Source: Candidatus Tantalella remota
Lineage (GTDB): Bacteria; Omnitrophota; Gorgyraeia; Tantalellales; Tantalellaceae
NCBI GenBank assembly: GCA_030765685.1
Contig: JAVCCB010000015.1
Coordinates: 8,113 to 72,112 of the forward strand
Direction: 5' to 3'
DNA: 64,000 nt
Shown: positions 50,501-61,900 of the stretch, in pieces
Layout of the letters: the number at the start of each line of letters is the position of its first letter
Position numbering within the stretch: position 1 is the first letter of the stretch
Made by a program: the position numbers and the translations under genes
The notes under the pieces: generated by a model
Databases searched by the model: none
Told to the model about the DNA's origin: nothing
What the model saw: only the letters and a program-made list of their open reading frames with translations

Positions 50501-53500
50501 ACGCCGAGTGGCAGACTTACCGAAGCGCGTACGATATAACCAATGAAAAGCTCTTCATGTTGACAGACCTCAAGGGGAAGATCATACACATAGCAAATGA
50601 AAAGAAAAAAGACGAAACGTGGGAGACATCCCCTGTGGAGACGGAACCGGAGCCGAGGGATCTGGTGCGGGCGGAGAACGCCCGGCGTATAAGGAACATC
50701 CCCGACGACGCGCTCTGTGATTTTTACGTTAACGGCAGGCATATAGTGTTGTCCAGAGCCGAGATAACCGGACCTGAGCCGTGGGAGGGAGAGGGTGTAA
50801 GGATACATAATTCGATAGTGCAGGGATCGATACTTCTGCCGGGGTCGGAGATCATAGACAGCGTCGTGGATAAATCCCAGGGACGGATAATAGCGACAGC
50901 CTCATACGTGCAGAGAGTGACGGTCAAAGATCTGGATGCTGAGAACAGCCTTGTTCATATGGTGGTTTCGGACGGCGCGGTCGAATCCCGGGGAGAGATA
51001 GTCAGTGACGTTTTTAGACCGGAGCTTCTTACGGACGAGTATCATGACGGCAGATTCTTTCGCGGTCAGACCAGGTTGCGAGTTCCCATGTATTATGATC
51101 CTAAAGAAGAAGATGAGGTGATATATGGGGATAATAAATTTGCTATAGATAGAGATGAGGAGAAAGTTGAAAGAGGCGAGGTACCGGATGAACTGGTCAT
51201 ACGCAGGATGGGCACCGTAAGGAGTCAGAACGAGGATATCGAGAGCAAAATACGCATACAGGCAATGATAATAGGGGGTATGAGGGAAGCTCTTGAGGCC
51301 CGCGTAAAAACGCTTAAAAATTCCGGGAAATTGACCGCGGGTTTTGTAAAAGATATTTTTAAGAATCTTGACCTGTACGGCCCGGCTGATCAGTACGCTT
51401 TGGCAGAGATAGTTTATTTCGCGAACCTCATCCACAGTATTTCACAAGACCAGGCTGTTCGCGATATCTCAGGCAGTGCGATGAAAGAGCATGTGTTTTT
51501 TGAACGCATCAGAGAAAGCTTTCGCGGTGCCGAGTATGACAGAGGACCGAGACAGGCAACGAACCCTCAAGAGACGGATGAATTGTTCAATGAGCGTTTG
51601 GGAGCTCTCAAGTTTATATTCGACCAGAATATAGACGTGATGGACGGTAATAACAGGTTCAAGGTATTTTTATGGCTGGAAGTCCTTGTGCATACGGATG
51701 TCATTACGACCTCGGCCCTTAAGGGGCTTCTTATAGATCTTGAAAGGCGTCTTCCCGATGATATATCTTTCGGGTCCGTGATGGAAACAGCTTATGAGGT
51801 TCTTGCGATACAGGGGTATCCTTATGATGATACGAACTCCGGATATTACGTATTAAGGCGTAATTTTCTTAATATGGTCAGGAAGGCCGTTCCGCTGAAG
51901 GAATACTCGCTGGTGGGAGATACTGACCTGGGTGCGGTGGTGGACCAGGGGATGCAACGGATAAGACAGGAGCGATGGAAAAACGGTTCCCCGGTATTGT
52001 TTTATGAATACTCTGAAGATGTGGACACGGTCCCGCTTCCTAATGGCGCGGAATTTGATATTGTTAACATTCCCGGACGATTGGCGTATGAAGAACATAA
52101 AAGAGCAGAGAGGCCTTCTGCCCTGGAAGCTTCGCAGGAGGAACTCCCGGTCGTTGGGCCCAAAATAGTGCGTGAACATGACAAAAGCTGCCGGTTCAGT
52201 GCGCTGTCCAAGCAGATGGTTTGTGCGGTAACGCGACACGGCGTGGAGTTCGATGTTTTCGCGAACATAAGCCCATTTGGTGAGAATCATGTCGTCATGG
52301 CTACGCATGAACCTTCATACCAGCTGATAGATGATGTCGAGAAAGCGCAGGCTTTGTTATATTTCGCCCGAAGGCTCGGTCCGGAATACGAGGGTATTTT
52401 TAACAGTACAAATGCCGCGGCAAGTGTCTTTCACTTCCATGGCCAGTATATCAAGGCTAGGACAAAACTATGGGACAATATTCGTGACTCGAAAGCACGG
52501 ATAGACTGGGATCCCGGATATTTTAATTATCCGGCTGTTCGGGGCGGGACACTGTCCGGCTGGCCGGCGAAAGTGAGATATATGGAGAGTTCTGACATCG
52601 GTCAGCTCGGGAGAGCCATAATGGCTGATGTGAAGGATCTTGAATCAAAAGATATGGCATATAACCTTTCGTTCCGTTTTGAGGACGGAAGATACAAGGT
52701 GATGGTATTCCCCAGAAAAAAGGAAAGGACCAAAACACTTACACCGAAAAGTGATATTTCTCTCGGTATGGGCGGAGTGGATCTGTCCGGACGACTTATA
52801 GTCTACAAACCGGGTGACAGGCAGTATCTAACTGAAGACCTTGCCAGGACCGCGGCTAATTTTGAAACGGTAATGCGGGATGAGGTGACGGACGCCTACT
52901 GGGTATCGCCGCTAAGCAAAACATGGTTGCAGTCGGTAAAGGACGTGGTTGTCAGATTATTGCCGCCGTCCAGAGAAGAGCATCCGATATCATGGGGAGC
53001 CTCGGTAGCGGCTTCGGCGGGATATGGATTGTTCGCGGGTGGGCTCGGCTATTTCTTTGGCATAGGCGCGCGACATATGGTCGTACTTATTTCTACGCTG
53101 GCGATTGTTTCTATCATATATCTGATGCAGGCGTTGGACCTGAAGTACGATGCTCTTGCGAAGGCGCGGGACCTTTTCGGTAAGATCATGCCCAAACGGG
53201 CTGGCCCCGGTCTTGTGCCTCTTTTTAGGCCCAACTTTGATAACATACTTCCGATCCCGCAGGATTCACCGTATCTTACCTATGTAAAAGACAACAAATT
53301 GTATGTGAACGTCAAAGAGATGTCAAGACGTCCCGCTCTTGTCCAGTATTTCTATTATTTTCATGAATGGTTCCATCTGCAGGGGGTAATGTCACACTTG
53401 GTATTGTACGGAGTGCAGGGCATGCTTCTGGCAATACTTCCGCAGATAGTTCTTGGCACACTTGCCGCGAACACCAGCATGAATTTCAGTATAGCAATGG

Positions 53501-56500
53501 TGGGTGGATTGGCCGCGACGGTGACAATGGGCCGCGGCGCCATGGCGATAATACTTTCCTTTATCAAGGAAGACGGCAGTATTAAGCTCGTGCCGGAAGA
53601 AGAATATCCAAAAGATATATCCACGGCCCAGGCTACCGGAGAAGAATATCGGCAGGCTCATACCAACAGGCGGATACGCGCCGATATCCTGGGAGGAAGA
53701 TATGTTCTTATCAAGGTAGACGACGAAGGAGAGCTGTATCTTGAGACCAAAGGTGACAACGCCAAAGGTGTACGCAGGGATTTCAATGATAAACTTAACG
53801 CGATCAGCGATAACGAAGAGTTAAAAGCTTTCCTGGCGAAGAACAAACATCTCATCGAAGACCTTGAGATATATCTGGTGGAACCCGAACCCGGAGCTCC
53901 CGATTCGGTTCACCCGAGCCTCCTCACGTGCGACGGTCGTAACTGGCAGGTAGCGGTTTCGGGAAGCAACGGAGGAAGGTCCCAGTCAGTCTACATGACG
54001 AGGGAGTTCTTTGAGAGCATGTCGGTAGAAGACGTATTATTGCCGGTGTTGTACAACCAGATAACCCGGGCGATCATGTTGTACAGGTACTGGCATCTTC
54101 ATCCGGATATAGCGTATCCGGCAGGAAAACATACTTCACAGATACAGCGTTTCGTAGACGAGATAGTTAATACCGGTCCGGTGAGGACTGAGCTTGATAA
54201 TGTGATCCGGGATCAGATAAGGCTGAGAGAAGAGCTGGATGTAGATGAGGGGATGAGAGCTCAGCTGATATCTCTTATGGAAGCGATCATAGAAGAGAAT
54301 CAGTTTGAGGATGAGTCCGGTCGTAAACAGAAATATAAGGCTTTTATGGATCTCAGAGATGAGCTGATGAAATTTAACAGGAGTATAGAAGAACCCGATT
54401 ATGATAAGGCAGTTGAAGTGTGGGGAAAAATAAGCTACAGGGTCAACAGTATGCTCAGGGAAGGGCATGCTATGTACGATGTCGTCAGAGGCATAAATAA
54501 GATGAAACTTATTCGCGGTATTGCCAGGGAGATAAGCGGCATACTGGAACAATATGTGGCAGAGTTTGGCATATACAGGAGTGAAGGAGCGATCGAGAGA
54601 GGTCAGGCCGTCGGCAAAGTCGTTGTTATTGACAAGGTCGAGGATATAGAGGGCAGGCTGAACGATATAACGGGTGATGAAATATGGGTCCTGCCGATAC
54701 TTACGATACGCGCCCCTTATCTGGAAGGACGAGGTATTATTGTAAGCGCCGGCCAGGGAGGGCACGCGCGCCAGGTGGCCTCTGATAAGGCCCTGCCGCT
54801 GGCCAATATCCCGAACGCGATCGAATGTCTTAAACAGTTTGATGGCCAGTGGGGTATGCTCAGGGTCGAGCCCAACGGCATAGTACGTTTCAGGCCGGCC
54901 CATAAGGATGAGATAGATACGCGTGATGAATATGTGCGAAAACCGGAGGCGAAAAAAGTCGAGATCCCTAAACCTGTTCTGGGTGTGGATGTGCCTCTTG
55001 CATACGATCTGGAAGACGTCGATAAATTCTATATAAACAGGGTAGGCGCCAAGGCCGCCAATCTCGGCCATATGCTAAATAACGGTTTCGCTGAGTATAT
55101 CCCGCCGGGAGCCGCGCTTTCTTTTGAGTTCTCGTCAAGATTTATGAATACTCAGAATACTGAAGGCGTTTCGTTGAGGGACAGGATAAAGGCGATCATA
55201 GAGGATATTCCCGTTGAACGGGGAAAGGTCACGGACGAAGATCTCTTTCTGGAGATCCTCGAAAAGGCCAGAAATGAAATAATGAACACGCCTCTTGAGG
55301 GAGAAAATGGTGAGCTTAAAGAGGCGGTTCTGGCGTCAATAAGGAGGATCAGGGGAAAGGCTGGTTTGCTGGAACCAATGACTGAAGAAGAACAGTCAAA
55401 GATCCTGGAAGCGGTGAAAAAAGTAATAGCTACGAAATACACGGAAACCGCGGTCAGGTTGCGGCTCGATAATCAGGTGGCGGATGAGGACGTGTACGCG
55501 GGTATCGTATTGCAGATAGTCGGTTCTGACGCGGAGCCGGTAACCACGGATCGGCCGCAGATATCAGGTACGATCTCCACCTTTAACCCGCTTTCCACCA
55601 GCAAGGGTGAGATACATATATCTGGAGGGCCCGGAGTAGGGGCGGTCGTAGATGATGAGGGGCTTCCGGCACAGGTGATAGTCAATAAGGTCACAGGAAA
55701 GATAACTATAGTAAAGAGCACATCGGATGAAGATACCATGACAGTGCCCCAGCCCGGGACTTTTCTCGCTCGATCCTCCTTTAACTTTGAAGATCTTTTG
55801 GAGCTTTCCGGAGCCGGACAGTATGAATCTTATGCTGACCGCGAAACGAGAGAGGCGGGAGTCCCGTCGACACTGAAACAGGTCATATCAAAAGATCTGG
55901 CAACGCGTCTGGCTGATATAGGGAAAAAGATGGAACTCTTGTATGGGTACTGGCCGCAGGATATAGAGTGGACCGTGACGCCGGGCGGAAAGTTGTTCCT
56001 TGTACAGACACGATCCATCCCGGATGGAGTACCCCATGATGTTGGAGAACCCAAGCTTCTCTATACGGACATTTATAAAGATATGCTGCCCCTGGTCACG
56101 GATGAACAACTTAAACAACTGCGGGAATTGAAGCGTGAACGCAATGCACCGGCGCTGCTTGATCTGATCCAGATTGGAAAGATGGATTTTGAGTTATATA
56201 GGAACAAGGCGGAACTCGGTACGCGGATCATCGCGGTTTCGTATTTGGAAAGTTTACTTGCCAAAGATAAAACGATTGGCGAGGGGTTGACCGAAGAGAC
56301 AGTCGACGCCATGATGGCATATGCTTTAAATCCGTCTAATATGCTAACTGCCCCGGGTATGTTAAAAGCTTTGTCTCATCTATCTGATTCCCTCCGGCAC
56401 AGGGAGCGGCTGAAACTGCAGGCAGAGATGGCCGATATAGAAATGGGTACCGGTATAGGCGGTCACTTAGGCTGGCTCGCCTTTGCCGAATTCGCTTCCA

Positions 56501-57873
56501 ACGTGGGGGCTTATGGAAAGGCGCTAGCCGCGTTGGATAGCATAGAGTTCGGGAATGACGTTACGAGATCTATGCCGGCGAGGATAATAGATATTATAGA
56601 CAGGAATATCCTGCATCAGGAATCCATACCTTTACTGGAGAAGCTTATTAATACTTTTGGCGGTGAGTGGGTAAGCACTCAGGCACAGCTTGTCTTGAAC
56701 AAGATAGAAGTCGCGTATGCAAAAGAGGTCGATCTTGATAAGCTCAGGCAGGAATTTCAGGTAATAATAGGTGTTCCGGCTCCGGTGTTCATAAGTATGG
56801 GGGAAGAAAGAATAGAGGTTCTTGAGAAAGAGCTGAAAATACAAATAAAGATGGTCTCGGGAAATGATCAGGAAGAGATGCTGGGTAATCTGGATAAGCT
56901 TACTCAGGGGGAGAAATCTATCGCCGCTTTGCTTGACGTAGCACCCGGAACCGAAGGTATTGATGACATGGTACGAAGTTTCGCGGTAAAGGCTCGCCAG
57001 GATATTCTTGCGCTCATGCATCCTGAAATAACCTCTCTTACCGACGAGAATGTTAAAAGGATAGAGGATATAGGAGAACTGCAGTACATAGCCGGTATGC
57101 TTGTGAGGCTTCTCCCGGAGATGGATTCGCTTAATATAACCGAAAAGAGCATATATGATATCAGGGTGCATAACATATATGATAAGTACAGATTCGCGTA
57201 CAGCGAAGATGCTCTGAGGCATCTTGAAGACCTGAAAGTGGAACAAACACGCAAGAATAACCGTCACTTTATGGTTACGGGCATAGATAACGCGGCTGAT
57301 ATGCGACTTATGGCCGAATCGATACGTGACAGACGGCTTGCTATGGAGATAACGAAGCCTGAGGAAGATCCTATACGTGACGTACTCCTTGTGCGAAATA
57401 ATGAGATAAAGAATAATATTGAAGAATTTATGGAAGTTACCGGACTGGGGCAATATGTTCCCGCGGCCCAGGTGCTCTTTGTCGACGAGGGTGAGACCAG
57501 GACCCCGGAACGTGTCCTTGAGATGATACGAGATGAGATAGATGATAGTGTCCTGCCAGAGCAGGTGGCTATGGGTGCCAAAATGGGGATGATAGATATA
57601 GATTCCCAGGGCTCTACGGATATCTTAAGAAGCGACAGAAAAGATAGTATGCTTCTTGTTCAGCTGGAAGACGGTATGGTTAGCCAGCTCTACAGGATGA
57701 CTCTTGAGATCATGTCTAACAGCGACCAGGCGCCGTCGGCGGGTATTGACGGAGACCTGTCTCAGATAGGCAACTTGAACCTGTTCAATTATCTGCCACG
57801 GGTCGAACCGGTGGACATGAGTGAACTTAAGGATTACGAGGAACGCATACGTCAGATACTTGTAGCGGCGTAA
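26545..57873 (+). CDS. Giant multidomain membrane protein (10442 aa). Contains an N-terminal signal-anchor plus TraB/GumN-like module, an HExxH motif, several TM blocks, a GH5-like glycosidase, an NTP-transferase-like region with hexapeptide helix, a GalT-type HIT motif, and a PEP-utilizer plus PPDK_N-like module.
   Basis: ATG with RBS. 31329 nt in one frame ending at TAA 57871-57873. Coding composition throughout; antisense ORFs are low-complexity shadows. Confidence 0.92.
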   Translation: MGILRKGTGRQSLHTDKSGYSAAGVKAADEIYGVTTWRRRHAFFIKCVSIVVAVIFLHQQTGWAQAGKPVWANAKPLAKTYNEHMNLNGINIPYDVAKTQEVCVNPSEDVIIHVQDAHASLSAQHSIVNLLDSLVTNYDLRLIALEGASGYIDTSLLKTFPDKAIRDDTAEFMLKEGRMNAGEFFAVTNDGPEVEIYGIENDALYRTNVESFRNVANQRARHVADVEGMLGQLELLSEKMCSEELNMLNSNSVLHRDGRLSFTDHWKHMISLVEKYNIDFSRYGELKKILMSIELEGEINFAKANLERRRLIDELSREMDKEDLEQLVLRSLAFKQNNISQGDFHSYLISLAEKEGIEAAGYENLINFTRYIAIYESVELFKLYRELESLEDAVRERIYRNDDEREIYHMTKMIRLLKKLYSMELVNTEYVYLRENLGRVSVQDNARFIREKCDEYTVPIAGAYDLGMIFGDAEGAMDFYRQAEDRNAAMLANTLKAMRMTGKHVAALVTGGYHSTGLSELMQQKKLSYLVVIPKFESGKERPYIAILTNKKRPYQEILESGQYQLAVEAYFSATKGDLSRMKSSLFHALGEAAIEGKDIAAIKRIWEQAYRERYETIVSEKLDQMTFAPVTPEAFVSFLARVEAQRVGDATVIADRTGDGITFIALIRDGEYYEFNPASRSQRVVVARRLALQETSASTAEEEGAEDFANALQKIRSDVADIKSMLSSIIDTREELIIQLEGVSPADIMARLQDPANTTAKEVISKLRAKQINVPADWEGDEEISEKINVLVADVRSSAAYIARSEAIGEDSEQEPTRKAGAAEGLSEGAEERVEAQPTPDAATAAYIERSEVIGEASEKEPRRKRGPPGSMMGLLMVLGLSLFLNISSPSLGRAATPVAHPGGAVPELVQKGSDAMTSRVRATRESIAKSRGAGARKQFAADKQKMQDAIGEYFDNLRQTDYFKDRAARIASAGDGSDPLVLDTYISGGRFLLVDAYEDGYSWTVDMPERRMEKLNALIDRVWVSVDKDSLPEYIRAKTVTRQAEDGTSYEEPVDDIWKMLFVLSVLDPDTYDYLEKNNVRIVLVETDWFRGANRGTRFWRMIAPDGATIEIDRNQIAEMVGTLVHETVHHMNSDVPDSLWSLYRSTLGYGKEFFRELPSYEVEPFARQQEFMRAKFRLNVRMGFLSSAYLEQRWFFGMMSVLTWMITILAPAYIATKYAVKKMGGLKSIGEKVQNFVEKRTGGRDGQTNTATITVMAVMAATVATVFLAVLPALARPGSAIPMAGLLKSMAPMLALASVVISAAIVLSRNRASIAGLIANRRERRTKRRIEEAFMEALNNMGDEFRGAIDESVKENFRVKIQNDLTKLEPQISALRKERERAAISLTQGNAAAQKDINAADRKIARLLQAVEVLNTRLSSHEKIYEFLQDPKGVMPAVLEDDEYRETLQNYIGKMRALRMSGMSDEDMARLHTPAYFKSVIEAIPLLTLQGRAENLRKLGIKIKPYLLGYREDTMKEKVSLLARMGMPITASNVRLSQVKMIKTAITSYVNGILADAPVQQERDQLAALVEKTLTADMEVLVHPDYRGKNPFLSSYADAVYEEKDESVLTEEDRDALGRERDQLSELRDRYMAVIASPARMSDDDFEDLGDFLTRLSDGDLALYAEQHLSEEELEELNRLSEKTISIPQQEIQADFLYKIVSDKTINGQEIFDRVLYEEGVYALPQKMVVEELVADQEDIRTAHKKEFRGAVDAVKQHLKNLDTARSLYTAGEWIGLTRQIFKIRRDFSRDMKERIKALRYNDLYRDQARIFERYHDEYLLQLMGIDISRKDDGTLDLDRILLDLGIIGRDRFRELSRALSVMFPGTTIYSPVIRAMGFFSGAKGWMESQSEKTARMFDRIPLFGSMPAYARVMLMISMGIVVFASFALAALIPAAAPPTPTAPSITMETPTPLGYMETQVGLGEIEPIQAVLNVADIDTSYTPEYMQEWIADQLNDAWPTGVWEEVITPELAPAAPVAEPELLIAQAVDTNTVIDTGVTPGITPASGAPVLEAPVSEAPALETPVVEEQDIPVMEIIDVEEITVDEVKEHLTVEGGFRLPLLGRLWGGTTPEREEAARKAIILLSRVENPRQQKQMYKLGKKSVNRMKSEDEDSILRNTLYEFALEEAKRLQGDDTYQGDVEEVIGSILDSVRTIPQRGTYDKVREGLLSRPLLSDTDMLLTLLTADNLLDERLDIDLATINYLKENGTGGIFGNFKVWIGLGYDTRSESLSMALPGVSLTLLDRGKDARVSEAMANIGNKRAEYYASTVSAMRDFFVLWQNANQITDEIGRLEKGVARLKVELEQAHEEDRPGILSRIRTAEGMVDDDQAELGKITARIKALMGIRPDRAISLDFSKPISPDAIDNAFRICADYGVELGAPADVIKANAGAIWGAASAEEADIAGIRTVTIGAKVDFLNILTDWGLVGLTGTLDLRWGRTMTEAHAEFLKAVKTMYAEMSEKDAEVKKVTLLRVQSSTRALLASMDENIERLEKIKKEHEAPAKRWTRNRYDYMQAIFDIQHARVIRDQVELQVQAVWAELGLEYRLVEGVPEARAVMDMDAVMQQVMDRITTRGDIRELELLKTRALGEFKAMGITPPESMTGEKVGAGRTLRNAGVRALTTIGLGDGITLGGSLTGQDIAGGYGWMEDISESREDITRWWTSFGIEIRPENALGLWQQYWEVTYKEADMLMKNKVYRWSCDVLSMINSYRGLEAQLASAERQLELAKEIQADILADRYSTVEEADMVDKSAEFVSEKKALLETVRAQLSESMNISLDDVAGEGVVSADEIEGLLARTLESAGIEGYDPEGAEKELLETARQKTVVLLRLARFKKMEVPVGIAWESYQKLSPRRTQTTDDAGNVIMNDLTSQAFTEDVTDADGATVTDYVTENTREYYVEWTSVLENLLQKTVIVKRPKAVVDKADFDLERWPSRATRVRRIAVADREEASDNLNSSRQELMDQDTALAGLIERYAAYDPYVTPRMIRYQEKKVEGRRSEVIANEAALVNADIRLIRVAGVNWRETEGPQAEERDYSREEVMHKQIQAGLDGSEAFIKMLTDYVDVDLRLSVETPNIDDRLDTVDGYLADINGWRDYLDNERWNSYSWADSGSGGDTVGESIDPNTGTVTPADDSQQSQQQAGLDATRATLDGYEEQLNEQKSQLEDIKKRQIAGFIDWKIEIKVRPFAELADAGKSRRKAKDAEAEEKQIEYAFAFRMIQDYVQLQAVREKLASEQQLEASVRVFLEEEMAFKQEISPDAGMTDRVKQFTSELEEIKDNIAAYKYQLRHLEKRGTKGLKALVDSGVLELTYVDENGQIREIDITQVDPALFNKVMQTVQEKWPQVQRSVLAREISEINLAQLSIPRNLASNFEIRHPFGSREEFGTRLVLGIYVNIIEPGRAYRKASEQVSLWINEAKQRDAEISFQNTLKALETRITEYAEAMIRHQAAYQNGERSIAEAMENWGDLDPNALIVLGETRYTMREARENFIEARANYNEAMLELQVYVHVLGDDKPETMAELLSPVTAEEKATITAAGVSPDQVQAEALKLPAPDWVTGPAAIRDADIRIETDIFLSNVLSDREYTEDEVDHWVGYFRYLSQPNFRDYTKDEAVRHITGMTWWAKKMMPRLEGVEIPDFFGRCVDPYSLSDRAAENPMIGFIDFAMAYEEYMMARGQESMGRDADPEIARRRTERKMDEVIQALKTGGAELEALKTEIDKVGLAKNPDDWDLKLVMMKKYGDAITGRNLRVTKYNFADRRFLANLYTYTVLHSLTPEETDNLYSTVLPELVKLVNDIAGDSLSPENIRDLPGDQAKYLNWLYEQMDEVPAEKQERLQGWIDAYSNMLAENIALDRAMTLLTIASENTATLQGMGIDTDLAKEIKKLKYRSDVLTAIAMGEAAPKDMDKFMSLMSTSMDKESIEAGTGELIPNINIVPRGLRRTRDVWTGILGPDGIFDGRHVLSYRYNTDNSYSVDYQAPYYVPSATEVDEGIYTEVARKEAQAHGGIKTSDYDSSDNFKKTVFGDNTEKEVISGIIGPDNDYEVRISGSPTPAENRIYVYKKGVLTEIRNLEGMFIKKRGYKGEFLYDAHTTDVNVLRGAGINEKMAGRIFGSRQAAPDEVVREVEGIEIADGVVTGDIVVIADKDVVRKLLVDHPSLGSPDNKALVDALFYAQGDNRFTNVRMGELMTLGEASRATIKSYLESAARNIGKDEIDFDLTDMDTADSFVWWTAAVMNGQVPDAIYEGDMAPVMAKMAEISEWPEIRETAEFLISYDNRARENGEVVGNVYRMLYSNARSIIEGEMTGKEAKALIKEQLHVVREAYMLVTGETPYGYQELTSEEKTSMQRILGSNYTLVGVLGALAVGLLFVMRARKRKRVAEGALKRVGLDEDTGAAARLLDARRGDLERAAINSLLAGNKESEIQDTGIMAIVIQEDLGDVAAAYQFASESDDERIRGRVIIVQNTNTLFRGFEDEALYHEAREAYWMDQTGDRSAAHILASAEQSRRFARAELGGLTPYHYQEIGKLGSSEAVERLQGEERAEHLRVLAEYGMTWASDYEDAFQLQLSVRLAELLAEERAIALPQVTPPTAPRAPAVPGVTPEFFDKQITYSTKYLLSLQNNVKKALADAVKKKEKRPLRKRIASYFINPGYEFVEDDQKVIARSIIEACDTMRSALDRASSIRESLSGSESLGIKAINSAFVKLVDMLKPEEEASVIGVQSSLTGRLREDGAKKTNLDRERETGELVLVLQNLSNNLVSIESVYATAGITDLRINRSYTLPELIVEVQNSLTEKKPISSGAIAAISQLTEEFFFATAGNEIIENLAVQQSFGPPGHFLKKTSIVKDLRTTLDIAEKEARAVESGQATYEKYFVDRKKKFGYAPSTSINLSIRANNFIELSMTDDDKNVIWEGTTVEGLEGVDEVTSGVEFYGKGRQLTTFESLIPIIFGMTERLKSASEIGARLRAKGTSMPLAQVTEQLSGPLRKARVDGYVTQSEHLGDDSSREPVRERLGLRFAVTVLAAAALMFAFGALVLPNLPAGLFPAVHELTAIGILDPHAKASAATGVFFFFKQLVTMVFFTITITMIQKKYLADTGLFNKTGLVRILDDDIGKAVPDRRMAEAVEGMKETLPADSRQNFRGVKTRKEDGSYESSSKIAGELSRPIGLKGFFEKSKKPMNVVRRSGAEGADPFFFVYLNSVTRKEMVEALLRAEEKATGTLSGDLVDYLNEQRAAGYRVDGKIVVSNEDIIRKIEEGAPERAENIYQALKEDKRFFIHVARCTPLFGEPFLLETVNIRNLDTDYPNLTVWPALVEHDQKVTDRFTELVSQGRIPDDMHALLSSQMGVQKQNLPIIDEKEARSRLARGESLEGVTLLTAEDGRVKTGWDMIERLPETKSVATGYAISAMETVAEVLRNRGTLSEDDSLFMAVPDFSEAGAPEVFEILDAEDRANTLQPWSIAIGFKRINTIVEYLQEVVETEGYDAIRPAVLRRSNRALYNEITRWGIDLLMVTDTVNDFRKMREKMSASAETNRYIDKQQEIFEASLLSEEELATLVGAEKEKALEKAFVMSEMRARLSPAVLQGVLRLNPLGDNPFTTQDYGPWNMIKRGLVAQRSIISLLGGLLSGGLIAYVAFTAFSYFGFSAMAYAGAVIGGSIGFKGAIWLVGNLVLKYRHLSEGVERSINKASPFPYDGTTNSFWLEKLVGRNMRTGEETFRGKLEHGLYEYKKGLYELGPDDAEANAALEFMATFTPYRTLGIHDSNDIIEDAKLGSLCSKYGYRNMIIADYGTETFEANLPELGYEWWYQRSRWITITPIAVMLRSMRDFFIFFGVIIGMGFGGALMGSRMVGLMGIPLGLIGVGLGAVAGGLIGNVLGGVAYRIKRAFGRAPYPEQESSFAKQAGVFNFMLLIFLLFGKPATLMTTFTFGTTGLLAAATGLAKLGYLGSYAQVIMTFAPPMFWFITSAAVGLTLFLIPFYIIFEMSVFGALFSGPDNESLVRDGLDRMKETAEKFQNYKISVEARRLSGILKYRPEDKEAIEESVASMRELLFELSSPDDTPEEADLRAFDERDMDKNWRVQSVLDAVLDGSRDTTQLRRDLNQIARDKAISLNPSLQVRVKIMEHIDKAFDKFAVTDSYSYDDMIKVLSDMREGRLGFNKGWQIDMFDDAVMRFTKAVETQKPATLEDAVKIHEEEMRLIGDAISTKIAEIRGRYDEVIAGKISFGSRAAMMAAGLIAGAAVLWAKNLIIPGVAVTMIISGIALSALWLTSRAGIKMGIGMMPYFYLKQVVISLQIAVLYFIHMIPAAKITLEQIWARRDNWWSRTSHDEREILPESRARYGEKVRANIREMFTRRERVGRSMFETPAVSFAFFLASMTFLLLLINNGLTWRMRDAAVVGLFLSSVPLIWNTLMLRFDEVGKSQFFRPAISLAGAGFVIASAGLVSLGLKTMGYPLFVAPFAFEATVALVGIAMLSAAIFTPKDRLREIYMNIYNKWMLYAVVLGPATAMLVLLPFGQNLLEGRKTRFIEDNVNPMVEIYHASRSGDIYFSTEDVMWRLAQGMPAEGKSQAELEDFRKRASIIRQMARMRDEGITNTDIAENLINAFKDCPYPSGPDGLAGWVRINADIFAVKAGIAKGTLHVQKLKDYYEKQIEVYGFDRTKTDLARRYIESIEAYEKDEVERGISDRELRGDYDLIRIQLEAYRRLLMETGDPAAQLKYLHIVGIVENSIEGVGISEVWNLPSVEYEDFELSFYKKEYLTTVDHVSSGARKEQMPEALDEDAIVTDPVKGEITAKINISRERRSNVIGLNVQDMLGRPLAEDEQMVLTVTVPEKFVTGNPMASISLQGVWSDSGGNWQHGAHNIVFGERPLADGQYKYNIAISPLDEYDSYQFGYYTDGGFSPNSADMKVAGIRVLIGNADQIQDSFEGEITIQGRIRKVQKMEKPLNVRGDATGGEEFRKNSGMSIGLSFHDVGKWGAAEHDGFSSEQGKAKLRETFRNFAEDGIMNVRMQSLFGDGRAGLVFDDAGNFTGFDDYVESDILALFEVLDEIRVDYPEFKIMPVLFSFELADGTTSENGFTIGEHPELLTDSENRDVLLSELNRVFGIVWGHEGVTAWDLFNEPEIAHNTMDAEGNRVLNIGEVQEFVRLLAPDIQRQGGDVTVGSFTRTQMLNNWLDSPLDLLQFHWYDKSPYNDINFLKAWMSDGRPVIAGEIGALGKFPVQLQGGDIRDIAEMLRRSGVNGAYPWQDWGKYDRGTSRNYAKWLESQSKRPVSVPEEAEAPVVKPVSAPEGKPLPPVSMRPARPVIPKKLFRGQLPRRTGMMGLILAIGTVFMAAGQGSAVAGEVAMPVAFTGAVAQIVSTAGTMVVEETGPGVIFALAERVTAGQLLPYAIGLVVLVGLMAFTVYLARKRTRKEIEDQFAVERRELIDARRIGAIENDDVREMEAMLMEDTEFGTAARDEIARLKAIGDTADLDKFIRETFIQRFNIDLTRTALTREDYKKRGYDTIIISSSSADDAAAKKLAVQRMFRGLPVEIFSEVVSNDGGQIMGHMTVLEAARENGLDLDEMFSKKGGPKVAVWHDGGMASRFSPITPSLNDARGLQDLVGRFENSRLEMTDAELLFMVMLNSLDFGSTSTATTVDTFWTSQIVAGTVAHSMIERSDAPFVKFLVPIDWDVPKDLLYKQLLQFGTVTTDENGYIRNFYGNQKKSCIRKAKDGTLEINPDHQYIYDDLKSAPTAYFDFGSFSMNNAMLKALYDYWMKKTALDDDGNEYRIIRKAVETGVVAKELKRDIDPHFTQPLAFLLQAIVSERNLGRDMLEGITPVDAFRQYTGEERRLQLQKQVALIRQRLPGGARVRMGEFFEEEVEIEDAEKPGEKKKVKQIVIDKNTGNPEEKILDPVTETIEIFLLNRDNPDIFPEDLSRTLGSISLGQNAEWQTYRSAYDITNEKLFMLTDLKGKIIHIANEKKKDETWETSPVETEPEPRDLVRAENARRIRNIPDDALCDFYVNGRHIVLSRAEITGPEPWEGEGVRIHNSIVQGSILLPGSEIIDSVVDKSQGRIIATASYVQRVTVKDLDAENSLVHMVVSDGAVESRGEIVSDVFRPELLTDEYHDGRFFRGQTRLRVPMYYDPKEEDEVIYGDNKFAIDRDEEKVERGEVPDELVIRRMGTVRSQNEDIESKIRIQAMIIGGMREALEARVKTLKNSGKLTAGFVKDIFKNLDLYGPADQYALAEIVYFANLIHSISQDQAVRDISGSAMKEHVFFERIRESFRGAEYDRGPRQATNPQETDELFNERLGALKFIFDQNIDVMDGNNRFKVFLWLEVLVHTDVITTSALKGLLIDLERRLPDDISFGSVMETAYEVLAIQGYPYDDTNSGYYVLRRNFLNMVRKAVPLKEYSLVGDTDLGAVVDQGMQRIRQERWKNGSPVLFYEYSEDVDTVPLPNGAEFDIVNIPGRLAYEEHKRAERPSALEASQEELPVVGPKIVREHDKSCRFSALSKQMVCAVTRHGVEFDVFANISPFGENHVVMATHEPSYQLIDDVEKAQALLYFARRLGPEYEGIFNSTNAAASVFHFHGQYIKARTKLWDNIRDSKARIDWDPGYFNYPAVRGGTLSGWPAKVRYMESSDIGQLGRAIMADVKDLESKDMAYNLSFRFEDGRYKVMVFPRKKERTKTLTPKSDISLGMGGVDLSGRLIVYKPGDRQYLTEDLARTAANFETVMRDEVTDAYWVSPLSKTWLQSVKDVVVRLLPPSREEHPISWGASVAASAGYGLFAGGLGYFFGIGARHMVVLISTLAIVSIIYLMQALDLKYDALAKARDLFGKIMPKRAGPGLVPLFRPNFDNILPIPQDSPYLTYVKDNKLYVNVKEMSRRPALVQYFYYFHEWFHLQGVMSHLVLYGVQGMLLAILPQIVLGTLAANTSMNFSIAMVGGLAATVTMGRGAMAIILSFIKEDGSIKLVPEEEYPKDISTAQATGEEYRQAHTNRRIRADILGGRYVLIKVDDEGELYLETKGDNAKGVRRDFNDKLNAISDNEELKAFLAKNKHLIEDLEIYLVEPEPGAPDSVHPSLLTCDGRNWQVAVSGSNGGRSQSVYMTREFFESMSVEDVLLPVLYNQITRAIMLYRYWHLHPDIAYPAGKHTSQIQRFVDEIVNTGPVRTELDNVIRDQIRLREELDVDEGMRAQLISLMEAIIEENQFEDESGRKQKYKAFMDLRDELMKFNRSIEEPDYDKAVEVWGKISYRVNSMLREGHAMYDVVRGINKMKLIRGIAREISGILEQYVAEFGIYRSEGAIERGQAVGKVVVIDKVEDIEGRLNDITGDEIWVLPILTIRAPYLEGRGIIVSAGQGGHARQVASDKALPLANIPNAIECLKQFDGQWGMLRVEPNGIVRFRPAHKDEIDTRDEYVRKPEAKKVEIPKPVLGVDVPLAYDLEDVDKFYINRVGAKAANLGHMLNNGFAEYIPPGAALSFEFSSRFMNTQNTEGVSLRDRIKAIIEDIPVERGKVTDEDLFLEILEKARNEIMNTPLEGENGELKEAVLASIRRIRGKAGLLEPMTEEEQSKILEAVKKVIATKYTETAVRLRLDNQVADEDVYAGIVLQIVGSDAEPVTTDRPQISGTISTFNPLSTSKGEIHISGGPGVGAVVDDEGLPAQVIVNKVTGKITIVKSTSDEDTMTVPQPGTFLARSSFNFEDLLELSGAGQYESYADRETREAGVPSTLKQVISKDLATRLADIGKKMELLYGYWPQDIEWTVTPGGKLFLVQTRSIPDGVPHDVGEPKLLYTDIYKDMLPLVTDEQLKQLRELKRERNAPALLDLIQIGKMDFELYRNKAELGTRIIAVSYLESLLAKDKTIGEGLTEETVDAMMAYALNPSNMLTAPGMLKALSHLSDSLRHRERLKLQAEMADIEMGTGIGGHLGWLAFAEFASNVGAYGKALAALDSIEFGNDVTRSMPARIIDIIDRNILHQESIPLLEKLINTFGGEWVSTQAQLVLNKIEVAYAKEVDLDKLRQEFQVIIGVPAPVFISMGEERIEVLEKELKIQIKMVSGNDQEEMLGNLDKLTQGEKSIAALLDVAPGTEGIDDMVRSFAVKARQDILALMHPEITSLTDENVKRIEDIGELQYIAGMLVRLLPEMDSLNITEKSIYDIRVHNIYDKYRFAYSEDALRHLEDLKVEQTRKNNRHFMVTGIDNAADMRLMAESIRDRRLAMEITKPEEDPIRDVLLVRNNEIKNNIEEFMEVTGLGQYVPAAQVLFVDEGETRTPERVLEMIRDEIDDSVLPEQVAMGAKMGMIDIDSQGSTDILRSDRKDSMLLVQLEDGMVSQLYRMTLEIMSNSDQAPSAGIDGDLSQIGNLNLFNYLPRVEPVDMSELKDYEERIRQILVAA
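26668..28285 (+). other. Conserved N-terminal module of ORF2: signal-anchor helix (26668-26740) plus TraB/GumN-like domain (26870-28285). Paralogous to the ORF3 N-terminus.
   Basis: IIHVQDAHASLSAQ...LRLIALEGASGYIDTSLLK near the domain start and VAALVTGGYHSTGLSELMQQKKLSYLVVIP near its end. The latter resembles the TraB/GumN C-terminal motif FxAVGAGHLxGxxGVxxLLxxxGYxV. Alignable with ORF3 aa 1-530. Confidence 0.5.
28941..29144 (+). repeat. In-frame direct repeat (~66 nt x2, ~72 nt apart) inside ORF2, encoding AAYIARSEAIGEDSEQEPTRK / AAYIERSEVIGEASEKEPRRK
   Basis: 28941-29006 and 29079-29144 are about 85% identical at nucleotide level. Confidence 0.8.
29926..29940 (+). other. HExxH zinc-metallopeptidase-like motif (LVHETVHHM) in ORF2
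   Basis: Codons cat gag acg gta cat at 29926-29940. Preceded by hydrophobic residues in an SprT/WLM-like pattern. Motif-level only. Confidence 0.3.
33700..37230 (+). other. Possible outer-membrane-factor (TolC/OEP)-like helical and beta periodicity in ORF2 (weak)
   Basis: Recurrent Ala/Leu/Glu helices ending in Y/N-rich turns (e.g. EARENFIEARANYNEAMLELQ, SELEEIKDNIAAYKYQL), alternating with Gly/aromatic strand-like segments. Composition-level resemblance only. Confidence 0.2.
43520..46245 (+). other. Polytopic transmembrane block of ORF2 (about 15 or more predicted helices), with glycine-zipper segments
   Basis: e.g. GMGFGGALMGSRMVGLMGIPLGLIGVGLGAVAGGLIGNVLGG, FAPPMFWFITSAAVGLTLFLIPFYIIF, AAMMAAGLIAGAAVLWAKNLIIPGVAVTMIISGIALSALWL, FVIASAGLVSLGL...VALVGIAMLSAAIF. 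Confidence 0.65.
47600..48470 (+). other. Glycoside hydrolase family 5-like (clan GH-A, (beta/alpha)8) domain in ORF2
   Basis: WDLFNEPE with the acid/base Glu in NEP (48058-48066). LLQFHWY as the conserved His-x-Tyr. VIAGEIGA with the nucleophile Glu (48334-48336). Spacing matches GH5. Followed by a Pro-rich linker and TM helices. Confidence 0.65.
49200..50960 (+). other. Sugar-1-phosphate nucleotidyltransferase-like region plus left-handed beta-helix (hexapeptide) segment
   Basis: VAVWHDGGMASRFSPITP (49441-49494) parallels GGxGTRLxPLT. FGTVTTDENGYIRNFYGNQKK parallels yGvv..d.dG.v..f.EKP. Hexad periodicity in VRIHNSIVQGSILLPGSEIIDSVVDKSQGRIIATAS (50775-50960). Confidence 0.35.
52130..52700 (+). 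other. HIT-superfamily, GalT-branch (HxHxQ) nucleotidyltransferase/phosphorylase-like domain
   Basis: SVFHFHGQYI with H-F-H-G-Q at 52432-52446. Upstream NISPFGENHVVMATHE. Confidence 0.4.
54570..54830 (+). other. PEP-utilizing-enzyme mobile (phosphohistidine) domain-like segment
   Basis: GAIERGQAVGKVVVID...GDEIWVLPILTIRAPYLEGRGIIVSAGQGGHARQVASDKALPLANIP parallels G.aspG.a.G.v.vi...GdILV...tdP.w..kaaGiVTe.GG.TSHAAIVARElGiP.VvG. Confidence 0.45.
54990..56030 (+). other. PPDK_N-type ATP-grasp nucleotide-binding domain (pyruvate phosphate dikinase / PEP synthase / rifampin-phosphotransferase family)
   Basis: FYINRVGAKAANLGHMLNNGFAEYIPPGAALSFEF parallels GGKGANLAEM...G.PVPPGF.IT. C-terminal QDIEWTVTPGGKLFLVQTRSIP parallels DIEWa...gklyiLQaRP. 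Confidence 0.55.
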
Positions 57874-58855: not shown

Positions 58856-58980
58856 AGTACAGTAATTAGCCATACAAAAAGTAAGAATTTTCCGAACTGT
58901 TTGGTGATCTTAAAAAGGTCAAGAACGGGAAGGGATTCGTATACTCTGAGAAAGTCAAACCCTTTAATAAGTGGGAGTTT

Positions 58981-61900
58981 ATGAGTAGAGATCACAAAAT
59001 TTTCAAAATTATCGCGCTTGTCGTCGCGGGTATTTTCCTGTATCAGCAGATAGTATGGGCCGCTGGGGATATGGCTAATACCGCGCATATGGCGTCAGGT
59101 GATCATGGCCTGCCCATTGCCGCGCCTATCAATATCTCAGAAGAGCTTGCCCAGACAGAGACTATACAGATCTCCGGTAGCGGTGAAACGATAATCAACA
59201 TTCAGGATTGTCACTCCTCTCTTTCAGCGCAGTATTCAATAGTAGAGATACTCGAAGAACTGATGAATAATTTTAACATGAACGTTGTCGCCGTCGAAGG
59301 CGGACACGGGTACCTTGATACGTCCATACTCAAGAGTATGCCGGACAGCGGGATCCGCGAAAAGACCGCTGAATACCTGATGAAAGAAGGCAGGATATCC
59401 GCCGGTGAATTTTTTGCCGCGACGACAGATAAAGATGTAGCTATATACGGTGTCGAGAATAACGACCTTTATCAGGAAAACGTAAACGTCTTTCGGGAGA
59501 TACACGCGGGAAACCGCTCTAACATAGAGGATATTAATTCTCTTATAGAGGAACTTAAAATAAAGGAAAAGGAAGTTTACTCAGACAGTCTGATAAAACT
59601 GGTATATAAGTCCCGTCTTCATCAGAGCGATAGGATAACCTTCGATGTGTATTGGGATTTCTTAAAGGACGCGTGCGAGGCGGCCGGGGTTGCCACGGAT
59701 CAGTACGTTAATATAAACAGTTTTACCGAGTCAGTACAGCTGGAAAAAAGCATAGATTTTGATAAGGCTACCGACCAGAGGAAAGCTCTTATCGGTCTTC
59801 TTATGGCAGAGCTGAATAAGGAAGGGCTGGAAGAACTTGTCTTAAAGTCTGTCTCTTTCGAGAAAGGGGAGATCGATCAGGCGGAGTACCATAGATGGCT
59901 TCTGGATTTTGCCGGGACAAGGTGGGTCGAGACCTCGGCCTTTACGGAGCTTTGCAAATTTTCAAAATATGCTACAGAGTACAGAAAGCTCGATGTGATA
60001 GGTCTTTCCAGAGAACTTGATGGGGCTGAAAAAGAACTTCTTAAAAGATCATTTTCATCCGATAAAGAAAAGGAGCTTTACAGACTTATCAGGATATTGG
60101 AACTTGTTAAGTCACTGTTCAATATAGAACTTTCGAGAGAAGATCTTAGCGCGTTGACGCGTTACCTGGAGATGGTCTCCGCGGAAGAATATACGGGATA
60201 TTCCAGGGAAGATGACCTCTCGGAGGAACGCCTGGATGGCATATTCGCTGAAGCGAAACAAGCGTTAGAGTTTTACCGCCTGGCAGAGATTCGTAATCAG
60301 GCTATGATCGAGAACACTGTCAAGGCTATGCGTGAAGAGGGACGGCAGGTAGCCGCGCTTATATCGGGAGGGCATCATGCTGAAGGCCTTACCGGAATAA
60401 TGAAGGAAAAAGGATTATCTTATTTAGTGCTTATGCCGAGGGTAACGGGAGACAAGTCCCGTCCGTATGTGGCTGTTCTTACGAAAAAGACCGGCCCGTA
60501 CAAGGAACTGATATCAAGCGGAGAGTACGATCTGGCGCTTCAGGCGCTGTTCGATTCGGGGTCTCTCGCGGAACTTGACGATATGTTCGTCTACTGGTAC
60601 GACCAGACGCTCGCCTCCGGAGAGGATATGCGGAAGGCCATCGATCAGATGGTGCTTAATTACAGAGATATACAGGAAGGTATTTCCGCATCCCGCCGCG
60701 CGGCCATGGATTTTGATCCGGTGAAACCGGAAGAGCTTAAGAATTATCTGGAGTCTATAACGAAGGACGAAGAGACAGGGTCGATAACGACGGAAAACGG
60801 AGTGTACAACGTAACGGAGAAGGGAATAAAGCTCGAAAGACGCGTTAAGAAAGTATCCAAGGATGAGATAACCGGCGCGGGTATGATACCCGCGATACGG
60901 TATATCCTGGAGAAGCGAAACATATCTCTTAAGCATCAGGCCTGGATGGAGCAGTCACTTTTCTGGGGGATAAACCTGAGTGTCGTCGGGATGATGTCAT
61001 CCAACGTCATGCTCGGGACGCTGATCACGTGGATGACATTCATGATGGCTCATTTTTTTAAGACTAAGGACATGCCAAACGCTCCTCCGTCGTCTTCGGT
61101 CATTACGGTAGGGCTCATAAACGCACTTTTCGCCGCCGCAAGCGTATCGTCCTTTAATATCCCGGTAATAATAATCTCTTTTATAGTAGCAACTCTTATC
61201 CACCATTTCGCGAATATCAAAGGCGAAGTGCCGGGGCTTAAATACGTTATAAATGCTTTTGAGAATCTGTCTTTCGTGAAAAGTATACGTTTGTCATTAG
61301 AGATCAAAGCCACCACGGATGAGAAGGAGAAGCTCGTTCTTATCGCGAGGAGACAGGGGCTTGAGTTGACCCCGGAAGACCTTAAGGACCTGGATGACCA
61401 GTTTTTCCGAAATGTTACGAGTACATTGCTGGAAAGCGCCCGGGAGATGCGTATGAGTCCCGGGATGCTGAAGGAATTATACAGACCGACGCGTGTTACG
61501 GAGATAAGCATACCGGTAAAAATGGATTCTGGAGAGACAAAGACATTTGACGGATACAGGATATTGCATAATGACGCGCGAGGGGCGGGTAAGGGAGGCA
61601 TAAGGTTCCATCCCGCTGTTACGCGTGGCATGGTAAGAGCTCTCGCTACCGATATGACATGGAAGAACGCTATAGTCGGTATACCGTTCGGCGGGGGAAA
61701 AGGCGGTATCACGGTCGATCCGAGAGAGATGTCAGAGACCGAGATGGAAAAGCTTTGCCGGGGGTATGTGAGGGAATTGCTTAAGAAAAATCCCAGAGCC
61801 ATAGGTGTTTTTGATGATGTGCCGGCTCCGGATGTCGGTTCCACCGCGCGGCACATGGCATGGATGCGTGACGAATACGAGAAGATAAAGGAAATAGAGG

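Follow-up and report, generated by a model that had tools for sequence, protein, structure and literature searches.

Locus and module organization

We analyzed a 64,000-nt stretch of the Candidatus Tantalella remota assembly GCA_030765685.1 (contig JAVCCB010000015.1, positions 8,113–72,112 of the forward strand; hereafter, the window), in which three giant open reading frames (ORFs) occupy the plus strand. ORF1 enters from upstream of the window start (nt 2–24619; at least 8,190 residues), ORF2 spans nt 26545–57873 (10,442 residues, with approximately 26 hydrophobic segments), and ORF3 runs from nt 58885 to beyond the window end (nt 58885–63999; at least 1,705 residues). ORF2 hosts a phosphotransfer cassette near its C-terminus, consisting of a swivelling phosphohistidine (His) domain followed by an ATP-grasp nucleotide-binding domain. 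This region is probably the catalytic core of a swivelling-histidine dikinase, set in a C-terminal module of approximately 1,420 residues of an Omnitrophota-type giant membrane protein.

The conserved C-terminal module covered nt 53602–57870 of the plus strand (ORF2 residues 9020–10442; blastp) in the order orphan alpha/beta domain, helical region, His domain, linker, ATP-grasp domain, and a tail of approximately 600 residues in two parts, A and B. It was common to the relatives from end to end, as exemplified by P0017 with 32% identity over residues 9024–10442 (blastp). The last hydrophobic, transmembrane-like cluster of ORF2 (nt 53080–53565, plus strand; residues 8846–9007 in a Kyte–Doolittle scan) immediately preceded the module, and P0017 likewise had a transmembrane segment directly upstream of its module.

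The family surfaced by exhaustive HMMER searching, which yielded 17 relatives at E<1e-30; word-index homology searches with the single protein or with alignments A1 and A2 returned generic phosphoenolpyruvate (PEP) synthases or nothing. Hidden Markov models of alignments A1 and A4 matched the window once each, in the module only (6.6e-269 and 4.8e-267). The closest relative of the module was P0003 (NCBI MFH1798278.1), from Candidatus Omnitrophota. We also scanned the GTDB species genomes with a degenerate DNA pattern for F-x-x-RSSFNFEDL, which located the cassette at 11 loci, eight of them in metagenome-assembled genomes of Omnitrophota. A genome-collection scan using the single protein found no relative.

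ATP-grasp and phosphohistidine domains

The ATP-grasp identity of ORF2 residues 9486–9829 (nt 55000–56031, plus strand) was beyond doubt. PF01326 (PPDK_N) was the sole Pfam match in the whole of ORF2, with an E-value of 3.4e-25 and 89.4 bits against a cut-off of 27. The profile of the 17-sequence family matched PEP synthase in the PDB (8a8e) at 1e-60, with the swivel domain of this structure as a second, weak match. An AlphaFold2 model of residues 9020–9840, built on a 65-sequence alignment, reached a predicted local distance difference test (pLDDT) value of 90.7 and a predicted template modelling score of 0.84, and a prediction of the cassette from the single sequence reached a pLDDT of only 32.6. 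Foldseek searches with the model retrieved PEP synthase, rifampin phosphotransferase (RPH), HpeI, and PPDK at 1e-13 to 1e-5, with TM-scores of 0.76–0.78 to the isolated ATP domain of RPH (5hv6).

The key ATP-grasp columns were nearly invariant in the 65-sequence alignment, and ORF2 retained every catalytic residue checked. These were K9503 of the GAK motif (nt 55051–55053; GAKAANLGHM begins at residue 9501, nt 55045), the counterpart of Lys22 of the rifampin phosphotransferase RPH-Lm; R9743 and S9762; D9806/E9808 of QDIEW (nt 55957–55971); and Q9821/R9823 of VQTR (nt 55999–56016). The last two pairs lay in DIEWTVTPGGKLFLVQTRSIP (residues 9806–9826, nt 55960–56022). The ATP-binding residues for which the initial annotation had proposed a comparison with RPH and PpsA are present.

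On profile comparisons and the predicted structure, residues 9342–9464 (nt 54568–54936, plus strand; module residues 323–445) are a swivelling phosphohistidine domain, with H9407 (codon nt 54763–54765) as the candidate catalytic His. The model showed a small alpha/beta domain at these positions. H9407 lies in GIIVSAGQGGHARQVASDKALP (residues 9397–9418, nt 54733–54798), corresponds to H388 of alignment A1, and was invariant in 17/17 family members. Pairwise BLAST and phmmer detected nothing for this domain. By hhalign, the His-region profile of the 17-sequence family matched a family of standalone bacterial His→ATP-grasp proteins (P=97.7%, E=1.5e-12), the canonical PEP-utilizer swivel domains (P=93.5%, E=2.3e-7), and, weakly, the His domains of proteins of the glucan-water dikinase (GWD) type (P=42%). 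The His column was aligned in all three comparisons. A 38-sequence alignment also placed the His of GQGG-H-ARQ on the catalytic His of the three other families, in which the motifs read SPLSHINILARGW.IPN (standalone), DVLSHVAIRAR (GWD-type), and GGITSHAAIISRE (canonical).

The standalone His→PPDK_N proteins (617–691 residues; P0025, P0026, P0029, and others) shared with ORF2 the domain order, the closest His domain, the lack of a TIM barrel, and PPDK_N as the sole Pfam match. They differed in having the ATP-binding Arg segment at its canonical position, an unrelated N-terminal region of approximately 200 residues, and no tail, and they are not giants. Among the His-domain profiles of the four families, hhalign connected the standalone proteins with both the GWD-type (E=5.9e-9) and the canonical domains (E=1e-8), and the GWD-type and canonical domains with each other at P=5.6%. 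Because the standalone bacterial family bridges the GWD-type and canonical swivel domains, these scores hint that GWD-type dikinases may derive from bacterial His→ATP-grasp proteins.

PEP synthase (EC 2.7.9.2) and PPDK (EC 2.7.9.1) have the order ATP-grasp, His, and TIM barrel. The initial annotation had read nt 54570–56030 as a phosphohistidine domain followed by a PPDK_N-type ATP-grasp, lacking the PEP/pyruvate TIM barrel, and this reading was borne out. The strings it quoted all lie within ORF2 at the places given, and its range nearly coincides with the His and ATP-grasp domains of the model taken together (nt 54568–56031). No TIM barrel was found by Pfam in ORF2, so that ORF2 is not a PEP synthase or PPDK, and H9407 fell on the catalytic His column of canonical PEP-utilizers by hhalign. 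The proposed hmmscan search succeeded for PF01326, and PF00391 stayed unmatched at E≤1; taken alone, it would have led to a wrong rejection of the His domain, because profile–profile comparison, the invariant His, and the AlphaFold2 model support it.

Relocation of the ATP alpha-phosphate-binding segment

The most unusual feature of the cassette, missed in the initial annotation, was the location of the segment that binds the ATP alpha-phosphate. The canonical motif order is GxK, RSSxxxEDL..AGQ..T, W-helix, GxGExV, and QDIEW, whereas the order in ORF2 was GxK, W-helix, GxGxxV, RSSFNFEDLLELSGAGQYES, and QDIEW (coded as A-R-W-G-D and A-W-G-R-D, respectively). Alignments with the closest relatives, which have approximately 36 residues including F(Y/F)VRSSFNFEDL..AGHYESYPD at the canonical site, showed a clean gap there in ORF2, leaving the vacated site RGKAGLLEPMTEEEQ (nt 55351–55395, plus strand). 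A matching insertion (RSSFNFEDL…AGQYES) was present approximately 140 residues downstream of the canonical place. The relocated segment, TFLARSSFNFEDLLELSGAGQYESYADRE (nt 55759–55845, plus strand), was recognized from motif order, alignments, and out-of-order HMMER domains; the domain pieces of ORF2 were out of order against PEP synthase 8a8e.

R9743 (nt 55771–55773) and S9762 (nt 55828–55830) in this segment are the counterparts of Arg117 and Thr136 of RPH-Lm, which bind the ATP alpha-phosphate and which, like Lys22, are required for resistance according to mutagenesis (PMC4844700). The segment was modelled with pLDDT values of 81–95, and the strand-loop from Arg9743 to Ser9762 is predicted to supply ATP alpha-phosphate binding from a new point of the chain.

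The late position was also found in family members P0006, P0016, P0018, P0023, and P0024 (locus L021), and in every GWD-type match with scorable motifs. The GWD-type matches carried PF22973 (GWD1_pHisD) in 8/8 cases tested, and two carried the GWD1 Ig-like domain. The outgroups, namely the standalone family and PEP synthases, had the canonical order. Neighbour-joining trees of 17 sequences, with both segment sites masked, grouped ORF2 with the canonical-order members P0003, P0004, P0005, and P0013 at 100% support over all 715 columns. The same clade received 99% support from the N-terminal orphan domain (N-domain) plus helical region, 88% from the ATP-grasp domain, 83% from its C-terminal half, and only 44% from the His domain alone. 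Within the family, monophyly of the late-position sequences received 0% support in every partition.

Because the nearest relatives are canonical and a single origin has 0% support, the simplest reading of the alignments and trees is that the segment moved independently at least twice in the family and once more in the GWD lineage, each time to the same site. The late position that ORF2 shares with GWD would accordingly be convergent, since the closest relatives of ORF2 keep the canonical order. The AGQYESY of the ORF2 segment was shared only with clade-I member P0005, which argues against import from the other permuted branch. No intermediate with two copies of the segment was seen.

An origin of the late segment by recombination with a permuted relative was rejected, given that every partition, including the ATP-grasp half flanking it, placed ORF2 with canonical-order clade I. 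An assembly or frameshift artefact was likewise rejected: the ORF is uninterrupted, the junctions are clean, other lineages use the same site, and the model is confident. No DNA repeats explaining the relocation were found, and one 12-nt match was coincidental, reflecting SSFN versus STFN codons.

The searchable literature contained no description of a segment rearrangement in GWD, and the 2026 StGWD1 paper (PMC13553574) does not use the term. The independent re-siting of a catalytic strand-loop of approximately 30 residues constitutes a natural experiment in which enzyme topology changed while the active site was retained, with implications for how GWD-type enzymes originated.

Orphan domains and variation among relatives

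The module begins with the orphan alpha/beta domain (nt 53602–54111, plus strand; module residues 1–170), modelled with pLDDT values of 91–98. This domain, a candidate for acceptor binding, has the family motifs HPH-LL, which reads VHPSLL in ORF2, and VYMTR, and its Y131 and R134 are invariant. The helical region (nt 54112–54567, plus strand; module residues 171–322) precedes the His domain and comprises approximately seven long helices in the AlphaFold2 secondary structure. Following the ATP-grasp domain, tail part A (nt 56065–56724, plus strand; residues 9841–10060) was conserved according to phmmer and alignment A4, and part B (nt 56710–57870, plus strand; residues 10056–10442) formed a conserved orphan domain. 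In the relatives, part B was always at the C-terminal end of the protein, and the tail terminated the protein in six of them.

Neither sequence nor profile searches of Pfam and the PDB matched the N-domain, the helical region, or the tail. The N-domain and helical region, the only two of these orphan parts included in the model, had no Foldseek match. Comparison by hhalign of the regions upstream of the His domain revealed no homology among the giants, the standalone family, and the GWD-type proteins. The PEP-utilizers_C TIM barrel (PF02896) was absent from ORF2 and from the modules of 16 relatives.

Several relatives carried inserts between tail parts A and B, at a point equivalent to nt approximately 56710–56724 of the window; ORF2 has no insert there. 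P0021, whose tail resembles that of ORF2 most closely among the relatives (46% identity in part B), contained two PTS-HPr domains at this position (residues approximately 395–602; PF00381, 8.2e-18), with the HPr motif GVHMRPS intact in both. P0003 had an HPr remnant lacking the His (residues approximately 5170–5310), as did P0013. In P0008, a complete phosphoglycerate kinase occupied the same insertion point (residues approximately 1516–1924; PF00162, 1.3e-86).

Other variations concerned individual relatives. The ATP-grasp of P0013 (residues approximately 6340–6560) was decayed, with RSSFNFED changed to FPSFNFGD, QDIEW to YEIGW, and VQTR to INYAK; its swivel His was kept, and P0013 possibly represents a pseudo-enzyme version of the module. 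P0018 (2,075 residues) carried a dimethylarginine dimethylaminohydrolase (DDAH)-like domain (residues 509–756; PF19420, 3.4e-15) between its N-terminal module and the dikinase module. The sugar-nucleotide genes PGM/PMM and ManC adjoined the gene for P0006, and one member of the standalone family adjoined a macrolide-type GT1. Gene neighbourhoods of the standalone family were not conserved.

Membrane topology

The description of ORF2 as an envelope protein in the initial annotation had the many hydrophobic segments as its sole basis. ORF2 starts with an N-in anchor, and its approximately 26 hydrophobic peaks were too many for a reliable parity count. P0006, P0016, and P0018 had signal-peptide-like N-termini and no further hydrophobic segment. 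Sec-type signal-peptide-like N-termini were also found in 13/13 standalone His→PPDK_N proteins (P0025, P0026, P0027, P0029, P0031, P0033, P0041, P0045, P0067, P0075, P0078, P0089, and P0116), in which the N-terminal 10-mer hydropathy was 1.9–3.1, whereas 12 of the 13 canonical controls had values under 1.6. If these signal peptides of related dikinases are real, it has to be asked how an enzyme that depends on ATP would work outside the cytoplasm. The same extracytoplasmic puzzle has been noted for other metabolic domains in preprints on Omnitrophota, including the searched sections of West-Roberts et al. (2023; bioRxiv 10.1101/2023.11.21.568195).

Relation to Omnitrophota giant proteins

ORF2 shared with the Omnitrophota giants ("Archaeovorins") its giant size, many transmembrane segments, a PPDK_N domain, a nearest homologue from Candidatus Omnitrophota, and a neighbour, ORF1, with SecA_DEAD, TPR, and GT domains. 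The initial annotation considered a phosphotransfer cassette in such a protein unexpected; this view has to be revised, as PPDK_N ranks by frequency in the top 20 Pfam domains of these giants in the searched part of the survey by West-Roberts et al. (2023; bioRxiv 10.1101/2023.11.21.568195). The occurrence of PPDK_N in Omnitrophota giants is thus already known at the Pfam level.

The keyword-searched sections of that preprint make no mention of a cryptic His domain, the 1,420-residue module, the absence of the TIM barrel, or the relocated segment. Apparently new are the cryptic swivel domain with its GWD-like order, the 1,420-residue module with orphan domains and no TIM barrel, the HPr and phosphoglycerate kinase inserts in relatives, and the recurrent relocation of the catalytic segment. 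The PPDK_N domains of the Omnitrophota giant proteins have so far been read as central-carbon enzymes. An apparently complete His-swivel dikinase with orphan partners and no TIM barrel shifts the question of their role to the phosphorylated target, and the module is a compact, expressible unit.

Proposed mechanism and acceptor

Homology with PEP synthase, PPDK, RPH, and GWD suggests that ATP would be bound by the ATP-grasp domain and that His9407 of the small mobile domain would attack its beta-phosphate, upon which AMP would leave and the gamma-phosphate would depart as Pi. The phospho-His domain would then swing to a second site made by the orphan domains of the module, where the phosphate would pass to an acceptor. 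By analogy, the overall reaction would be ATP + His → His-P(beta) + AMP + Pi, followed by transfer to the acceptor. Our best guess is a macromolecular acceptor, either a glycan hydroxyl as in GWD or the histidine of a carrier protein; the latter may be considered because HPr domains are fused at this position in P0021. A small drug-like acceptor appears less likely, and pyruvate is very unlikely because the TIM barrel is absent.

Several points weigh against a swivelling-histidine dikinase in this module. PF00391 and PF22973 gave no match at E≤1 in ORF2 and 16 relatives, and the swivel assignment therefore rests on profile–profile scores and predicted structure. Gly precedes H9407, where Ser or Thr is usual, and the N-domain of ORF2 has Ser at a nearly invariant His of the family. 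No known fold matches the orphan domains, and neither an HPr domain nor a G.H.RP motif occurs in ORF1, ORF2, or ORF3. The trees bearing on the relocation are neighbour-joining trees of only 17 sequences. The activity, acceptor, and acceptor site are inferred. Finally, if the predictions hold, the signal-peptide-like relatives would place an ATP-dependent dikinase outside the cytoplasm, a location difficult to reconcile with the use of ATP.

A glycan dikinase like plant GWD/PWD, acting on a polysaccharide that the giant itself makes or binds (glycogen-like glucan, capsule, or cell-wall glycan), is a somewhat unlikely specification of the acceptor. As in GWD/PWD, the His domain precedes an ATP-grasp on the C-terminal side, there is no TIM barrel, and the part of the protein ahead of the His domain is helical, as is the case in StGWD1 (PMC13553574, which also documents the His→ATP-grasp order). 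The PF22973 proteins further share the late Arg segment, RS(D/S)SN.EDL..(A/S)GAG.Y(D/E)S, which follows the GxGxxV hairpin instead of preceding the W-helix. Sugar-related context is found in the GT2 domain of ORF1 and the PGM/PMM and ManC genes adjoining P0006, and Omnitrophota giants show an enrichment of GT5, GT1, and PGM domains, with glycogen-synthase-like GT5 as the commonest GT in the searched sections of the survey (bioRxiv 10.1101/2023.11.21.568195). However, ORF2 had no PF22973 match, its hhalign score to GWD His domains was weak, its regions upstream of the His domain were not homologous to theirs, and CBM45, CBM20, and Ig-like (PF23166) domains were absent in the Pfam scan. ORF2 also differs from GWD/PWD in the tail of approximately 600 residues after the ATP-grasp, in being bacterial, and in being embedded in a membrane giant. 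Given that the closest relatives are canonical, the late segment is not shared by common descent, and the convergent resemblance says little on the substrate.

Alternatively, the cassette could be the ATP-driven head of a protein phosphorelay, in which the swivel His would pass phosphate to the His of an HPr-like carrier, in cis in some relatives and in trans here, in the manner of Enzyme I; we consider this unlikely. It is suggested by the two HPr domains with intact motifs directly after the cassette in P0021 and the HPr remnant at the same site in P0003. The swivel domain is also homologous to that of PTS Enzyme I, as established for the PEP-utilizer family. However, the phosphate donor would be ATP via the ATP-grasp and not PEP via a TIM barrel, HPr is absent from the window, and the His is missing from the remnants in P0003 and P0013. 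The phosphoglycerate kinase at the insertion point of P0008 indicates that this site may simply tolerate inserts.

The initial annotation had likened the cassette to antibiotic or other small-molecule phosphotransferases, and a role in antibiotic or metabolite inactivation like that of RPH, PigC, HpeHI, or phenylphosphate synthase is quite unlikely. RPH and HpeI rank just below PEP synthase in Foldseek, the ATP-grasp of RPH-Lm (5FBS, 5HV1-3, and 5HV6) is among the closest solved folds (1.3e-12), and RPH-Lm shares the swivelling His, the lack of a TIM barrel, as in these enzymes generally, and the counterparts of Lys22, Arg117, and Thr136. The macrolide-type GT1 next to one standalone member points in the same direction. 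Nevertheless, RPH has the opposite order, namely ATP-grasp, RIF-binding domain, and then His (PMC4844700), with its Arg segment in the canonical position. The order in ORF2 is instead that of GWD (PMC13553574) and of the uncharacterised bacterial standalone family. PDB profile and Foldseek searches gave no match to a RIF-binding domain, and Foldseek aligned the ATP-grasp only. The NCBIfam RPH model NF041857 scored 30.6 bits on ORF2 against a cut-off of 999, and the RPH, PigC, and RedH models were far below cut-off or absent. Such a function would also be hard to explain for a conserved C-terminal module of membrane giants, and among the hints on the acceptor the RPH-like idea has the weakest support.

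It is improbable that the cassette has lost its activity as a relic or binds nucleotides in a purely structural or regulatory role. Decay does occur in the family, as P0013 has lost the Arg, ED, QDIEW, and VQTR, and Omnitrophota giants evolve fast according to the searched sections of the survey (bioRxiv 10.1101/2023.11.21.568195). However, ORF2 retains all residues checked, the His is present in 17/17 members, and the relocated segment is intact and confidently modelled.

A PEP synthase/PPDK-type unit interconverting pyruvate and PEP, the reading given to PPDK_N in these giants in the searched sections of the same preprint (bioRxiv 10.1101/2023.11.21.568195), is hardly tenable. In its favour, PPDK_N is the sole Pfam match, the top NCBIfam and PDB matches are named "phosphoenolpyruvate synthase", and PEP synthase (PpsA; 8A8E and 2OLS) and PPDK offer the best sequence/profile match of the ATP-grasp, a swivel His domain homologous by hhalign, and the same expected dikinase chemistry. 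Against it, the TIM barrel is missing from ORF2 and the modules of 16 relatives, contradicting the published reading, the tail profile matched nothing in the PDB, the domains are in inverted order, the Arg segment has moved, and ORF2 scored only 18–58 bits with the PEP-synthase-type NCBIfam models against cut-offs of 598–1700 (best, 57.7 against 945).

Beyond a swivelling-histidine dikinase in a conserved module, we raise a broader and tentative possibility, of which we are more doubtful than confident. The module may represent a new class of phosphotransfer machine specific to Omnitrophota-type giants, in which the dikinase would serve orphan acceptor domains and phosphorylate a macromolecular target, namely a glycan of a surface or of prey or else an HPr-like carrier. 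It may do so outside the cytoplasm, given the signal-peptide-like N-termini of relatives and of the sister standalone family. Its Arg loop would have moved at least three times between the same two chain positions, in the lineages of the window, of P0006, P0016, and P0018, and of GWD. If true, a catalytic element of an ATP-grasp enzyme would have undergone non-cyclic permutation repeatedly.

Other features of the window

The N-terminal part of ORF2 (residues 39–643, nt 26659–28473) was paralogous to that of ORF3 (residues 35–625, nt 58987–60759), with 36% identity and an E-value of 4e-122. This N-terminal module follows an N-terminal anchor (IFL.QQ..WA), has no Pfam match, and also heads P0015 (41%), P0006, P0016, and P0018. 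ORF3 further contained an embedded, full Glu/Leu/Phe/Val dehydrogenase at nt approximately 61486–62676 (PF02812, 6.3e-49; PF00208, 1e-63); this glutamate dehydrogenase is a core metabolic enzyme within a giant membrane protein. In ORF1, we found a calcineurin-like metallophosphatase (nt approximately 863–1591, 2.3e-15), a SecA DEAD-like domain (nt approximately 4694–5128, 2.5e-13), and a GT2 domain (nt approximately 22232–22498, 3.4e-11), together with many TPRs; the same mix of domains has been described for Omnitrophota giant proteins.

Upstream of the C-terminal module, ORF2 showed by eye a GH5-like motif (NEP...GEIG; WDLFNEPE at nt approximately 48046), a sugar-nucleotidyltransferase-like motif (GG.xSRFxPxTP; GGMASRFSPITP at nt approximately 49447), and a HIT/GalT-like motif (HxHxQ; FHFHGQY at nt approximately 52429). 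Neither Pfam nor phmmer against the PDB matched these regions at E≤0.01, and sequence and profile searches of residues 6600–8850 against the PDB gave no match.

Between ORF1 and ORF2 lies a plus-strand ORF of 317 residues (nt 24923–25876) with an IS200-like Y1 transposase domain in residues 1–120 (PF01797, 1e-10). It is approximately twice as long as the usual TnpA, and an exact-protein look-up found no record of its sequence elsewhere. The minus strand contains an ORF of 311 residues (nt 54136–55071) opposite the helical region, the His domain, and the start of the ATP-grasp. Because the plus-strand protein there is conserved and well modelled, this antisense ORF is very probably spurious. 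No tRNA genes were found in the window. GC skew was positive in all 2-kb windows (+0.09 to +0.30) and AT skew in all but one, and the coding strand of the giant genes is therefore markedly purine-rich.

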